DNA of 64,000 nucleotides, from NCBI GenBank assembly GCA_051306435.1, contig JBPPNF010000052.1, positions 4,906 to 68,905 of the forward strand, given 5' to 3'. The notes below the pieces were generated by a model that saw only the letters and a program-made list of their open reading frames with translations, did not search any database and was not told the DNA's origin. This DNA comes from Solirubrobacterales bacterium (GTDB taxonomy: Bacteria > Actinomycetota > Thermoleophilia > Solirubrobacterales > JACPNS01). The translations under genes and the position numbers were made by a program. Positions 13,914 to 18,420 of this stretch are shown piece after piece (position 1 is the first letter of the stretch; each line of letters begins with the position of its first letter).

Positions 13914-14001
13914 ATCGGCTTAAGCGGCGCATGTTCAAACCACGAACTCGCCGAACGGCTCGCCTGTTCCAATTCTACGCGAGCAAGGATTCTCGATCAA
14001 G
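13914..14001 (+). repeat. att-like direct repeat copy 1 (left end of element A)
   Basis: 88-bp imperfect repeat of 16582-16669, containing GGCGCATGTTCAAACC. Confidence 0.75.
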
Positions 14002-14198
14002 TGGACCCAACGTCTGTCTCCGTGCCGCCGACGAGTCCCGTTGTGCGTCCGGCAGCGGTCCGGCGCGCTGTCAGTCAGGTACTTCTCGACTCGGATCGAC
14101 CGATGTGCGCCGCGAGCGACAGCTCATCGATAACACGAATTTCCAGAGGCCTGTATCGCGCCGGCTCAACCGAGGTGAATCGCGAACTCAGGCGTTAG
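13914..14198 (+). pseudogene. Internally deleted winged-helix ORF remnant
   Basis: RPAAVRRAVSQVLLDSDRPM...RISRGLY matches the 16582-16925 ORF with the middle missing. Confidence 0.6.
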
Positions 14199-15322
14199 TC
14201 GAACTGCCCGAGCCATTTCCGTTCGAACAGCACCTTGCCAAGATGGCCCACTCGCGTCGGCGGGAACAGACGCACTTGTGGGTCGGGCTCGGCGAAGAAG
14301 TCGCCCCTTGCAACGCCGGCCTTGCCACGTCCGATCTCGAGGAAGCATGATCCGTGACCCGCGAATCTGGCGCTGGTCTCGTGACCACGTGCGATGGCGA
14401 TCAAGTTGTCGGCAACGACGCGGGCTTGTTCGTTCGCGAAGACTCCTGCCTTCGGGAGCGGCTTTCCGTTGGCCAACGGAATAGCCGTCACGTCGCCGAT
14501 CGCGTGAACGTGATCCGCCGCGCGCAGGGTATGCCGGTCAACCGGAATCCAGCCGTTCGGCCCGGCCAGCTCCGAGTCGCGCACAAACGCCGGCGCTCGG
14601 TGTGGCGGTATCGCGATCAACAGGTCATATCGTTCCACGTCGTCCGCGAAGCGCAGCACCTGTGCGTTTTCATCGACTTCGCCAAGCGTCCGATCAGGGC
14701 GAAACGCGATGCCGCGTTTCTCCAGCATCGAGGCAACGCGATCACCCACTGCCGGTCCGGCCACCGGCATCGGTTGCGGTTCGACGGTGTGAACTCCCAC
14801 CTGCGATTCGACACCGCGCCTGCGCAAGTACGCCTCGATCAGAAACGCCGCTTCATACGGTGCAGCCGGGCATTTGTACGGCATCGACGGAACCACAATC
14901 TGAACGCGTCCGCCGTTGAAATTGCTCAGCGTTGCTCCTAAGTCCGCGGCTGCGTCCTTCGTGTAGAACGATGACGCATTTCCGAGTCCTGGCACGTCTG
15001 CAAAATTCAGCTCCGCACCAGGGGCCACGACCAGTTCGTCGTAGCTCACCGTTGAGCTGGTCGTCGTCACATTTTGCGCCCCAAGATCTATCCCCGTGAC
15101 ACATTCGCTCACCAGCTCGACGCCCCAGTTCGAGATCGAGTCGATCGGCCGCGAGACCTGTTCGACGTTCCGCGCGCCGTTCAGCAGCCAGAGAAACGAC
15201 GGTGCGAAGTCGTGGTTCACTGCCGGGTCGATCACGACGATGTGAATGTCCTTGGCACGTTCGGACAGTCGCTTGGCGCACGCCACGCCGCCGACTCCAG
15301 CACCGATCACGACCACCTTCAT
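14195..15322 (-). CDS. SQR/FCC-like FAD-dependent sulfide oxidoreductase
   Basis: VVVIGAGVGG, YKCPAAPYE, HAIGDV, PKAG, CFLE. Confidence 0.88.
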   Translation of the reverse strand: MKVVVIGAGVGGVACAKRLSERAKDIHIVVIDPAVNHDFAPSFLWLLNGARNVEQVSRPIDSISNWGVELVSECVTGIDLGAQNVTTTSSTVSYDELVVAPGAELNFADVPGLGNASSFYTKDAAADLGATLSNFNGGRVQIVVPSMPYKCPAAPYEAAFLIEAYLRRRGVESQVGVHTVEPQPMPVAGPAVGDRVASMLEKRGIAFRPDRTLGEVDENAQVLRFADDVERYDLLIAIPPHRAPAFVRDSELAGPNGWIPVDRHTLRAADHVHAIGDVTAIPLANGKPLPKAGVFANEQARVVADNLIAIARGHETSARFAGHGSCFLEIGRGKAGVARGDFFAEPDPQVRLFPPTRVGHLGKVLFERKWLGQFD

Positions 15323-16002
15323 GCTGACTTCTCCGATCGTTCGCCCGGTGCGATTTCGATCGGCCGTCCCTCGGCGACCCATTCTGCAAACCCGATGTCA
15401 AGCCGCTCGGTAGCAAGACCGAAACGCTTCATCGCGCGCACGGCGCTCGGCGCGAGCACGCAGTACGAGTCGCGGCAGTAAGCGACGACACTCGAATTTC
15501 GTGGCAGTTCTGAGATTCGGTCCGAGAGATCTTCGAGTGGCAGCGAGATCGCTCCGGGAATGTGCCCCGCCTCGAACTCGTCGCGGGGCCGAACGTCGAT
15601 CAACACGACCTCGTCGTCTCGCATCCGGGCGAACAGGCGGTCGCTGCCGATCTGTTCGAGGTCTTGTGTCTCAGTGAGAAAGTCGCGGACGAGACTCTGC
15701 GCCTCCAGGCTGCGCGCCTCGGCGAGTTGTCGCAGTGAGACCAGCGCCGAGAACACGGACTCGTCCGCCAGCCGGTAGTGGATTCGCTGTCCGTCGCGTC
15801 GCGTGTCGACCAGCCGGGCTTGCCGCAAGACCTTCAGTTGCGACGAAACCGTGGTCAGTGGTGCCGAAAGCCTGGTCCGGATTTCGTCGACGCTGCGCTC
15901 TCCTTGAACCAGCAACTCAAGAATGCGCACGCGCAACGGATTGGCGAATGCGTGCCCGAGCTTGGCGATTTCGGTGTCGAGATCGACCGACTGCATGACC
16001 AT
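15319..16002 (-). CDS. ArsR/SmtB regulator fused to rhodanese domain
   Basis: ANPLRVRILELL...VSSQLKVLRQARLV; DVRPRDEFEAGHIPGA, YCRDSYC. Confidence 0.92.
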   Translation of the reverse strand: MVMQSVDLDTEIAKLGHAFANPLRVRILELLVQGERSVDEIRTRLSAPLTTVSSQLKVLRQARLVDTRRDGQRIHYRLADESVFSALVSLRQLAEARSLEAQSLVRDFLTETQDLEQIGSDRLFARMRDDEVVLIDVRPRDEFEAGHIPGAISLPLEDLSDRISELPRNSSVVAYCRDSYCVLAPSAVRAMKRFGLATERLDIGFAEWVAEGRPIEIAPGERSEKSA

Positions 16003-16003
16003 C

Positions 16004-16360
16004 TCAGAACACCAAAACCTTGTCAGCCCAGAGCGACCACTCGGTGAGCCCATCGAGGTTCGACCGCGAAGCGCCTTCGACGAGCGGCACGTCGGCGAAG
16101 CCGCGGGCGTCCAGGCAGGTGCCGCAGACACCGACCTCAGCCCCTTTTCGCGTGATCGAGCCGACCATGCGCTCGATGTTGTAGTAGCCGTCGGGTGTCT
16201 GCTGGCCGGCGACTGCGCAACCGGCGGCGTCGCCGAACAAGAACATCCGAATCTCGACGCCGTCCTGCTTGATCAGCGAGCGCGCGAGCCGGAGGCCGTT
16301 GTATGAGCGTTCCGTCCCGTACGGCGGATCGTTGAGAATGACGAGGAAATGATTAGCCAT
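16004..16360 (-). CDS. DsrE/YchN family sulfur-relay protein
   Basis: DPPYGTERSYNGLRLA, FLFGDAAGCA, GQQTPDGYYN, CGTCLDARG. Confidence 0.92.
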   Translation of the reverse strand: MANHFLVILNDPPYGTERSYNGLRLARSLIKQDGVEIRMFLFGDAAGCAVAGQQTPDGYYNIERMVGSITRKGAEVGVCGTCLDARGFADVPLVEGASRSNLDGLTEWSLWADKVLVF

Positions 16361-16395: not shown

Positions 16396-16526
16396 GATTA
16401 CCGAGACACACAACGACTCGCCCGCCCTGATGGGACCGTGTGGAGATACGTAGACGTCGAGATCCAGATCGAGATTCGCGGTGAGTACCGGCACGTCGCC
16501 GAGGGCGGATCTGGCTGATCACTGCC

Positions 16527-16551
16527 GGCGGTTTGAACTCTGCAAATTGGT
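16527..16551 (+). repeat. att-like arm (right end of element A)
   Basis: GGCGGTTTGAACTctgcaaattGGT resembles GGCGGTTTGAACTtcaacaaaatGGT abutting the tRNA at 18323-18348. Confidence 0.7.
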
Positions 16552-16581
16552 CGCGTGAAGAACCTCTGTAAATCCGCAGGA

Positions 16582-16669
16582 GTGGGCTTGACCGGCGCAT
16601 GTTCAAACCGACTTATGGCAGACCGCGTCGCCTGCTCTAATTCTACGCGAGTAAAGATTCTCGATCAAG
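16582..16669 (+). repeat. att-like direct repeat copy 2 (left end of element B)
   Basis: GTGGGCTTGACCGG-CGCAT-GTTCAAACC aligns to the tRNA antisense GTGGAGCTAGCCGG-ATTCGAACC. Confidence 0.75.
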
Positions 16670-16925
16670 CCCTCAATGCCGACGATGTGCAACCTCGGCT
16701 CATCGAAGTCGCACGACCGTTGGCAGTGCGAGAAGCCGTGAAACAGGTGCTGGAAGATTCCCAGCGCCCATTGCGTTACGTTGCGGTTGTCGAGCTTGTT
16801 AGCCGGAGGCTGGGCTGCAACGTCAGTCGATCAACGGTCAGGTCGGCACTCAGTGATCTCGCGGCGTCTCCGACATCTTCAGTGATTCGCAAGCAGCGTG
16901 GCCTTTACGAGACGCGGACTACCTT
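16582..16925 (+). CDS. Winged-helix-like ORF starting at the att site, 3' end at the IS fragment junction
   Basis: AVREAVKQVLEDSQRPLRYVAVVELV...VSRSTVRSALSDL...RKQRGLY. Confidence 0.55.
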
Positions 16926-17760
16926 TATCTCAGCGCCTTGCCGCCGTCGAGCACAAACAGCATGCCTTGCTGCGGGTCAAGCCCGCGATCGACGAGGTCG
17001 GTCAGCAACGCAGTGGAGACCGTCGCGTTCTCGGTTGATCCCTCCCACAAACCCAGTGGCAGCTTGACGCCTTCGGTTGTGACGCCCAGGGCGACCACGA
17101 CCGTGCGGCCTTTCAGGTCGAGTCCGTCGATCATCAATGCGGCCAGCCGCACGTCGCCAAGGTCGCGGCCCATCAGCTGCTTCATGGCGTCTCTCGTGCG
17201 GACGACAAACTCACGCGAGACGGCTGACTTGGACGTTGAGACGGCAGCTTCTTCGACTGCCTCGCCGACCGCCTCGCCGGCACCCTTGAAGCGGCGCGTT
17301 GAGATGCCCGCGAGCATCCGGTCAAGGATTCCTCGGCCGAGCGGGTCGCGACCTGCGAACTGCTCGTAGGTAGCAACTTGCGCCTCGCCGCCGCCCTTCC
17401 TGCGGATCCGAGGCCGGCGGATTCTCAGGCGCCTGGCACCGAGGGTCACCTGGCCGTTCTCGTGGCCATGGCGGTAAACCGTGCGCTGCGGATCGTGGGC
17501 TCCCTTGGGGCCGGCAAGCCGCGTGACCTCTTCGTCCATCAGCTCCTGCATGACGGCCATGCCGGTGAGGGCCAACTGGAGACGATCGGGCGCTTCGTTC
17601 GTCGCGCCGATCGGCGCGACGACAGCTTCGTTGTGTAGGTTCTGCATTGTTTGGTTCTCCTGTATTTTCGTTGTGGAAAATTGCCTCGTCACGCTCCCAA
17701 AAGGAGCGGACGGGGCTGGAGAACCGGCGGGTGAAGTTCTACGGAGAGTGGGGCAATCTC
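16925..17760 (-). mobile_element. Truncated IS256-family element (transposase fragment 16925-17647)
   Basis: YRHGH, RPRIR, LAGISTRR, SAVSR, LMIDG, VLDGGKAL then stop; catalytic E region missing; IR-like end near 17733-17760. Confidence 0.85.
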
Positions 17761-18409
17761 GCGGATCGAGCACCTCTTCGGCCGTGTCCAGCTTGAGCCA
17801 GCGATTCGCGAGCGGATCAAGGCAGCAGTCTTGGCCTACTTGGACGAGCGGGGCCAACACGCTGCGCCGCGACTTGCCAAGGCCGAAGCTGAACTGACGA
17901 AATTGAAGAACCAGGAGAAGAAGCTGCTCGACGCGCATTACGCGGATTCAATTTCCAAAGATTTGTTCGTCGAAGAGCAAGCGCGGATTCGCCGCGAACG
18001 CATCGCGGCCGACAAGCTGATCGAACGATTGAGCGCCGACGAGACGGTCGTGCAGGAAAAGGTGATGACGGCTCTGGCCATGACCGATCGAATTCAGACC
18101 GCGTACATCGCGGGAGACCCCAGCGCCAAGCGACTATTCAACCAGGCGTTCTTTAGATGGATTGCGATCGGCCACGAAGATGTCAGCGACTTCCAGGTCG
18201 CCGAGCCTTTCGATCAGTTCGTGGAACTGGTTGCGGTTGATGTGATCGAGGAGGAGTCTTTGGTTCAGACGAGCGCCGTGTCAGCACTCAAAAGCAAAAC
18301 CGCCGACCTCTTTTCAAAGGTCGGCGGTTTGAACTTCAACAAAATGGTGGAGCTAGCCGGATTCGAACCGGCGGCCTTTCGATTGCGAACCGAACGCTCT
18401 ACCAACTGA
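17761..18409 (+). pseudogene. C-terminal fragment of a large serine recombinase, reading antisense through the tRNA
   Basis: Coiled coil KKLLDAHYADSISKDLFVEEQARI, KRLFNQAFF, tail MVELAGFEP; catalytic N-terminus lost at the IS. Confidence 0.7.
18297..18330 (-). terminator. Terminator downstream of tRNA-Ala
   Basis: 13-bp stem AAACCGCCGACCT/AGGTCGGCGGTTT with T-rich tail on the minus strand. Confidence 0.8.
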
Positions 18410-18420
18410 GCTATAGCCCC
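18345..18420 (-). tRNA. tRNA-Ala(CGC)
   Basis: GGGGCTATAGCTCAGTTGGTAGAGC...TTCGCAA...GGTTCGAATCC...CTCCACCA; G3:U70 pair; encoded CCA. Confidence 0.97.

Follow-up and report, generated by a model that had tools for sequence, protein, structure and literature searches.

A degraded integrative element at the 3′ end of tRNA-Ala(CGC)

We analysed a window of 64,000 nt from a Solirubrobacterales bacterium (contig JBPPNF010000052.1), in which the remnant of a large serine recombinase (LSR) gene runs into a tRNA gene at one end of a degraded element and a winged helix-turn-helix (wHTH) open reading frame (ORF) begins at the other. The one tRNA gene that ARAGORN finds in the window, tRNA-Ala(CGC), lies on the minus strand at 18345–18420 (Rfam tRNA, 73.5 bits), and its 3′ end (18345) abuts the element. 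On the plus strand, a stop-to-stop frame at 17735–18409 reads ...KTADLFSKVGGLNFNKM-V-ELAGFEPAAFRLRTERSTN*, the longer stretch before the V being ...KSKTADLFSKVGGLNFNKM. Positions 17762–18346 of this frame encode the C-terminal third of an LSR (equivalent to about residues 367–577 of the relative P0001) with no stop codon of its own, and translation continues through 18347–18409 into a tail of 20–21 residues encoded by the tRNA antisense strand (VELAGFEPAAFRLRTERSTN, then a stop). The original prediction had described an LSR remnant read through the tRNA in this way, and the frame bears it out.

The remnant aligns to residues 367–582 of P0001, its closest intact relative, an LSR of 582 amino acids (aa), with 75–77% identity. 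P0001 carries Resolvase (PF00239), Recombinase (PF07508) and Zn-ribbon (PF13408) domains in precomputed Pfam annotation. Because the match covers only residues 367–582, the N-terminal two thirds of the protein, including the catalytic domain, have been lost; PF00239 is present in the intact homologues P0001–P0008 and absent from the window copy. Pfam is silent on the remnant itself, the PF07508 and PF13408 regions lie mostly upstream of its break, and the assignment comes from identity to the C-terminal third of P0001. The catalytic two thirds went, together with the element interior, through a deletion and the insertion of an IS256/Mutator-family insertion sequence (IS), a fragment of which now occupies the place of the interior (16925–17761, minus strand). 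Its transposase is truncated (PF00872, Transposase_mut, E = 1.2e-17, profile positions 20–235 of 379). We place its outer end at 17761 because 17643–17761 recurs between other flanks, on a second contig, in four of four public runs; this repeated 119-nt IS end differs there at 5 positions and is found in several copies in G149, a genome of the same genus. The window copy is inactive, as had been proposed from the loss of its N-terminus.

At the opposite end, ORF 16555–17067 (plus strand) holds GTG 16582 in frame and reads V-GLTGACSN... from that codon. The predicted wHTH protein of the HARE-HTH type (16582–16944, plus strand) is about 120 aa long; the IS breakpoint near 16930 removes the final few codons of the ORF, and the frame continues to 17067. 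Its first codon belongs to a GTGG at 16582–16585, the putative attL core. The same GTGG stands at 18347–18350, where similarity to LSR relatives stops and the tRNA starts; we take it as the attR core, that is, the inferred crossover region, made up of the discriminator and first acceptor-stem bases. The two GTG codons (16582 and 18347) had been said to share a register: each is in frame in its own ORF, and the absolute frames differ (1765 = 1 mod 3), which is irrelevant to the joint. Directly after the attL core lies the P′ half-site GCTTGACCGGCGCATGTTCAAACC (16586–16609, plus strand; direct sequence reading). The P arm at the integrase end (18297–18334, minus strand) comprises a hairpin with a 15-bp stem and a U-run terminator (18330 to 18297), overlapping the half-site motif GGTTTGAAC (18326–18334, plus strand). 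Immediately left of the attL core, 16523–16581 (plus strand) holds what appears to be the scar of an older element, a P-arm-like copy (CGGCGGTTTGAACTCTGCAAATTGG) followed by a 31-nt spacer that does not share the frame of the wHTH ORF and is interrupted by a stop (TAA 16569).

We conclude that 16582–18350 is the shrunken corpse of an integrative element, probably a conjugative one, which its LSR inserted at the extreme 3′ end of tRNA-Ala(CGC). The host genome (2.3 Mb, 56 contigs) contains one LSR piece, that of the window, and two wHTH copies, with no others. The window copy is thus a fossil, and its value lies in the family to which it points.

Related integrases enter their tRNA genes in a single phase

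The LSR is present in 78 of 401 genomes of the class, and from these genomes we took 15 LSR-tRNA junctions involving 8 tRNA species (Ala-ggc, Ala-cgc, Val-cac, Val-gac, Glu-ttc, Ser-cga, Arg-tcg and Lys-ttt). Each of the 15 ORFs stays open up to the core and crosses into its tRNA in the same phase, giving V-x-x-x-G-[FLIV]-E-P. At the protein level, tRNA-antisense tails end 15 of the 16 homologous LSRs that we read (P0001–P0005 and 10 further proteins), with tails such as ...MVELAGFEP.., ..MVEPDGIEP.. and ..LVGRTGLEP..; the exception, P0009, is truncated. Across the 15 junctions, the LSR gene ends in a 50-nt stretch of constant layout, namely hairpin, GGTTYGAAY, 10 nt, TGG, with the GGTTYGAAY motif standing 10 nt ahead of TGG in most of them. 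A search of genome contigs with P0001 returned three loci, one of them relevant, in a Solirubrobacterales bin.

A sister group of LSRs (36–40% identical) occurs in genomes of family f10 (e.g. G054, G078 and G114). These proteins end near the equivalent of P0001 residue 520, with open frames of about 515–560 aa, and the wHTH was found in none of 24 f10 genomes. The sister LSRs may represent the unsplit ancestral layout.

Left ends begin at the junction codon

We compared 21 distinct wHTH left ends. Similarity among them begins at xTGG (18 TGG, 2 GCGG and 1 decayed), and the junction codon is ATG in 10, GTG in 5, TTG in 3, GCG in 2 and ATC in the decayed window copy at 13914. The phase of the wHTH matches that of the LSR at this codon across the left ends. 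Upstream of it there is neither conserved sequence nor a conserved ribosome-binding site. The proposal that the wHTH ORF begins at the att site is supported by this comparison, and the junction codon itself is the sole conserved start signal, so an independent conserved start, which would have spoken against the proposal, was not found. The 15 junctions and 21 left ends likewise agree in phase, which upholds the expectation that the fusion frame is conserved in relatives.

A block of about 25 nt after xTGG, equivalent to the P′ half-site of the window, is kept at the 21 left ends even at synonymous positions (e.g. TGGAACTAAACGGGGCACTTTCGAACCC across genomes of different families); downstream of it the wHTH proteins are only about 30% identical. 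In the window, the P′ block GCTTGACCGG...TTCAAACC resembles the T-arm side of the tRNA, AGCTAGCCGG..TTCGAACC, and its GTTCAAACC is the inverted repeat of the P-arm motif in the integrase tail. The layout resembles what would be expected of the four half-sites of a serine-integrase att set. The two element ends share GTGG alone; the left end is a tRNA-like half-site without a displaced tRNA 3′ fragment, whereas a classical tRNA-gene genomic island has a direct repeat of the tRNA fragment at its far end.

Genome G021 contains three copies that are alike from TGG on and unrelated upstream, and we place the junction at that TGG because the resemblance starts only there. The exchange most likely takes place at T-GG, the discriminator and first acceptor bases at the extreme 3′ end of the tRNA (GTGG), and the crossover near GTGG that had been proposed maps accordingly. 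We favour GTGG over the TGG at the level of CCA as the core because most tRNA genes here have no encoded CCA. A core at the CCA-level TGG would change the joint by one codon and likewise leave the frame open.

Joining the ends restores an open frame

Joining GTG 16582 to GTG 18347 gives ...NFNKM-V-GLTGACSN..., which is free of stops for about 115 further codons. In silico, the rebuilt frame is open in the window and in two other genomes, G327 and G075. The original prediction had envisaged a circle encoding a continuous LSR-wHTH fusion: the open frame on joining stood, and neither such a circle nor a full-length fusion ORF was found in the databases searched.

These observations make it likely, in our judgement, that the attP crossover lies inside a continuous LSR-wHTH frame, so that integration would cut the gene and detach the wHTH part while excision would rejoin the two in frame. 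On the excised circle, the LSR would read through ...GGLNFNKM-V-GLTGACSN... into a long helix followed by a winged helix of the HARE-HTH type, which together add about 120 residues. Integration would cut the gene at the core. The LSR would stay next to the tRNA and gain its tail of roughly 20 residues from the tRNA antisense strand, and the wHTH part would remain at the other end of the element, preceded by a base from the host flank. The structural side of this reading has good in silico support. On the functional side, we infer that the fusion protein would be made and that gain or loss of the wHTH would alter the behaviour of the integrase, be it integration competence, directionality or autoregulation; the role in directionality or regulation that had been proposed is wholly inferential. 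A bolder and rather doubtful extension is that the state of the element sets the isoform, with the LSR-HARE-HTH of the circle able to find the tRNA end and integrate there and the integrated LSR, with its junk tail, silent or unable to re-integrate. Directionality would then be written into the topology of the gene, instead of or alongside a separate directionality factor.

Both ends in other genomes

The two-ended arrangement recurs in other genomes, so the arrangement in the window is more than chance. Contig C11 of G075 contains an intact element, in which an LSR reads into tRNA-Arg and a wHTH ORF lies 30.7 kb away on the same contig in the expected orientation. The interior encodes an XRE regulator, a DNA methylase, a Replic_Relax protein and a type IV (T4) coupling protein, and from this gene content the element looks conjugative or mobilizable. 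At its left end an older tail copy stands directly before the core, reading GLNKETLV-GLSGGLSNH in frame. The ends of G327 (L021 and L004) rebuild the open frame ...THM(V)-ELNGALSNP..., and its left flank contains a minus-strand hairpin and U-run that fits the native terminator of the tRNA. G356 (contig C5) has an intact LSR at tRNA-Ala with three wHTH copies upstream in the same orientation, and G152 (contig C6) has a small remnant resembling that of the window. Intact test cases exist, given that the wHTH occurs in 31 and the LSR in 78 of the 401 genomes of the class.

Alternative explanations

Several observations weigh against a crossover inside a continuous LSR-wHTH frame. The fusion itself was sought in many places. 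A tblastn search of the wHTH against plasmids and phages and a search of IMG/VR for the fusion or circle gave no match; a pattern scan of metagenomes found 9 loci, all lacking an upstream LSR; a word-based search for longer proteins yielded 2 matches with unrelated extensions and no LSR; and the best 150 of 1331 profile matches include no protein of about 700 aa that looks like a fusion with a single wHTH domain. In contigs from the four public runs (one study, probably the source of the DNA) that carry the window DNA, neither an excision joint nor an empty site was seen. Decayed ORFs that join an LSR C-terminus to a wHTH without a spacer do exist and favour the continuous frame (P0066/P0199, P0183, P0088/P0200 and P0187); these clusters are decayed remnants, one with an IS110 N-terminus. 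With a 60-sequence profile, the wHTH was undetected in five genomes with related LSRs, of which two (G354 and G091) have demonstrated tRNA junctions, so the switch may not extend to the whole LSR clade. When left ends were sought in these two genomes, the P-arm pattern matched attR only and scans for motif plus ORF over 60 kb and 35 kb were unconvincing. Furthermore, the two ends of G327 lie on different contigs, and metagenome bins make up most of the genome set; nothing concluded here depends on the unpublished genome G344. To the left of 16582 and 13914, the flanks resemble each other over about 35 nt, for which our reading does not account.

Searching the Atlas also returned clusters of proteins of about 110 aa and no fusion. 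Two apparent fusions, L007 (a 643-aa frame) and L038 (369 open codons upstream), were discarded as spurious frames over another gene or in GC-rich antisense.

The most serious alternative, which we nevertheless consider unlikely, is that the wHTH is a normal gene in its own right at the edge of the element, such as a regulator, translated from the junction ATG, GTG or TTG when integrated; its frame relation to the LSR would be a by-product of att spacing and the fusion on the circle incidental. Gene callers report most family members as stand-alone ORFs of 108–125 aa, as are most of the best 150 profile matches, which start at profile position 1. Of the 21 junction codons, 18 could initiate translation independently, and in the window AGGAG (16578–16582) lies 5 nt ahead of an in-frame TTG at 16588. 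The phase may also be frozen by the geometry of the att site and not by selection on a fusion protein. Against a separate gene, what precedes the junction is sequence of the host or of a scar, unrelated between copies, which therefore offers no conserved promoter or ribosome-binding site. A codon able to start translation is expected by chance in three of four cases, and two sites have GCG. Finally, the LSR stops before the core in none of the 15 junctions, which makes the fusion frame on the circle unavoidable.

A second alternative moves the crossover further left, to the TGG after the P-arm-like copy (16546–16548). The LSR gene on the circle would then close with a stop codon of its own (...GGLNSANWSREEPL*), and the wHTH would form a gene behind it. 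The stretch at 16523–16581 has such a layout. At least 9 of the 21 left ends, including that of the window (16523–16548), are preceded at a distance of 0 to about 70 nt by a copy of the integrase tail, which may or may not share their frame (among them, besides the window, L004, L006, L036, L037, L059, L061 and L062), and one type of spacer recurs in similar form in L037, L061, P0071 and P0101. However, the spacers vary in length (0, 9, 11, 12, 30–33, 65 and 70 nt), some keeping the frame and others not, several left ends lack a P-arm-like copy, and near-identical P′ copies within one genome share nothing upstream of TGG. A P-like host arm would still be required, so that this placement explains nothing extra, and we regard it as quite improbable. 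With the crossover at the GTGG of the junction, the upstream tail copies are apparently the piled-up scars of successive integrations at the same tRNA, which leaves the spacers unexplained. G075 has an old P′ piece joined directly to an old P piece, which looks like the outcome of deleting an entire element between its inverted half-sites.

That the resemblance is due to chance or to spurious ORFs across tRNA-like DNA, with no real winged-helix protein, is hardly credible: tRNA-antisense ORFs are a common annotation artefact and the wHTH ORF of the window has no Pfam match above threshold, but the family comprises 371 representative clusters at E≤1e-10, has a confidently predicted fold and matches HARE-HTH at E-values down to 1.3e-6, and the two window copies differ by codon-like changes.

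The winged-helix family

The wHTH is a real conserved domain. A 4-sequence wHTH profile searched against 1.84 billion representative proteins matched 1331 representative clusters at E≤1e-3, and the same 4-sequence profile found the domain, frequently in several copies, in 31 of the 401 genomes of the class. The family appears to be widespread in metagenome bins of the Actinomycetota type. HARE-HTH (PF05066) is matched by 20 of 60 family members at E≤0.1 and WH_Rok by 5 of 60; for the window's own ORF, GntR alone appears, below threshold, at 0.027. An AlphaFold (AF2) model of the relative L004, made with the 60-sequence alignment, has a predicted local distance difference test score (pLDDT) of 88.8. 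It shows a long helix (residues 10–31) followed by a winged helix, in which helices 41–55, 63–74 and 80–91 and strands 98–108 form a three-helix bundle and a beta-hairpin wing. The best Foldseek matches are DNA-binding winged helices of the Rok, Fur/Zur and Z-alpha types, all at E>1e-3.

Two other readings of the region were rejected. The N-terminus (ACSNSTRVKILDQ) is not a second helix-turn-helix, as the family alignment and the model give a long helix. The conserved 85-nt block at 16585 is not a tRNA-like or other RNA; at E≤1 Rfam finds the real tRNA alone, and the substitutions in the block are codon-like.

An older, decayed wHTH copy and its P′ site lie at 13914–14198 (plus strand), with 56% identity to the first copy over residues 1–64. 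The original prediction saw the same arrangement repeated there. The wHTH copy is indeed present, as a scar in which ATC replaces the start codon and the C-terminal half is lost, with no adjoining LSR or tRNA. In a reading of the DNA alignment, five of the changes between the two window copies are synonymous and the remainder conservative. Elsewhere in the wider set of matches, six proteins of 592–2976 aa (P0048, P0056, P0124, P0142, P0164 and P0188) consist of 5–13 tandem copies of a related winged-helix unit, without an integrase part.

A replacement CCA and terminator for the tRNA

Judging by eye from the 3′ ends, 3 of the 51 tRNAs of the host genome have an encoded CCA after the discriminator. 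Both tRNA-Ala genes with CCA (that of the window and Ala-tgc on contig C12) carry LSR tail sequence directly after it, and Ala(ggc) has neither. The encoded CCA of tRNA-Ala(CGC) was therefore probably supplied by the element.

The P-arm hairpin, which lies wholly within the coding 3′ end of the LSR, is predicted to act as an intrinsic terminator of the tRNA gene. A terminator scan of the minus strand finds the 15-bp stem and then the U-run, and the RNA folds at -31 kcal/mol (z -6.76). A hairpin occurs at the same place in 10 of 14 relatives, with stem sequences that differ and pairing that is kept. The last 50 nt of the LSR gene would thus double as an att half-site and, on the opposite strand, as a new CCA and terminator for the tRNA.

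On contig C12 of the host genome (39200–39338), tRNA-Ala(tgc) is followed by a scar of about 70 nt of LSR tail, consisting of hairpin, half-site and CCA; it adjoins a rubredoxin-like gene (named by eye). The hairpin of this scar shows compensatory changes relative to that of the window. Here the element is gone and its terminator has been left behind.

Comparison with known systems

Like the integrases of phiC31, Bxb1 and A118/LI, the relatives of the window LSR have Resolvase, Recombinase and Zn-ribbon domains. The sites also appear to follow the canonical pattern of serine integrases, with short att sites, inverted half-sites, a tiny core and no long direct repeat. Unlike canonical large serine integrases, the target here is the 3′ end of a tRNA gene. 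In Tn4451/Tn4453, the LSR TnpX gives working recombinase expression from the circular form alone, in which the joint creates a promoter; here the joint would complete the coding sequence, not a promoter.

The crossover as reconstructed in silico lies within the integrase ORF, and the relatives are serine, not tyrosine, recombinases. The precedents that the original prediction cited for attP inside int, Mx8 and SSV1, are real, as far as the accessible portions of the two articles go (PMC6070905, PMC8371274). According to the former, attP of the Mx8 integrase (intP/intX) lies in the int coding sequence, and integration gives the gene a new 3′ end and the protein a different C-terminus (PMC6070905). 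Our reconstruction shares both features in silico, and differs from this tyrosine recombinase, as portrayed in that portion, in that an LSR is involved, a whole folded DNA-binding domain would be removed and the new tail comes from tRNA antisense. In the archaeal 'suicidal' integrases of the SSV1 type, the att site is within the gene and integration splits it between the two ends of the element, in the available part of that account (PMC8371274). Pieces of the gene would likewise lie at both ends here; those archaeal enzymes are, in the same excerpt, tyrosine recombinases that are disrupted, whereas the LSR core would remain intact and a C-terminal add-on alone be detached.

A 2014 paper states, in the portion available, that serine-family integrases were not known to target tRNA genes (PMC4383910), and a 2025 note on TIGER/Islander does not, in the part available, split targets by integrase family. 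Our literature search found no paper pairing 'large serine recombinase' with 'HARE-HTH' and none describing such an arrangement. An attP inside int has so far been known for tyrosine integrases, and the serine-integrase case proposed here would be new.

The insertion of large DNA into genomes relies mainly on serine integrases, and control of direction is a central practical problem in their use. If integration does strip off a DNA-binding domain that excision restores, this would be a new coupling of recombination state to the form of the enzyme, and the 3′ ends of tRNA genes would be added to the known targets of serine integrases.

Genes between the two winged-helix copies

Three sulfur-related genes lie between the two wHTH copies (14195–16360, minus strand), encoding a sulfide-dehydrogenase-like flavoprotein (Pyr_redox_2, FCSD_central), an ArsR-rhodanese fusion and a DsrE protein. 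This block could be cargo of an island. We looked for the native attB in G149, where the block has no adjoining tRNA and an empty site was not obtained. The G149 block has 68% nucleotide identity to that of the window and sits in a different context.

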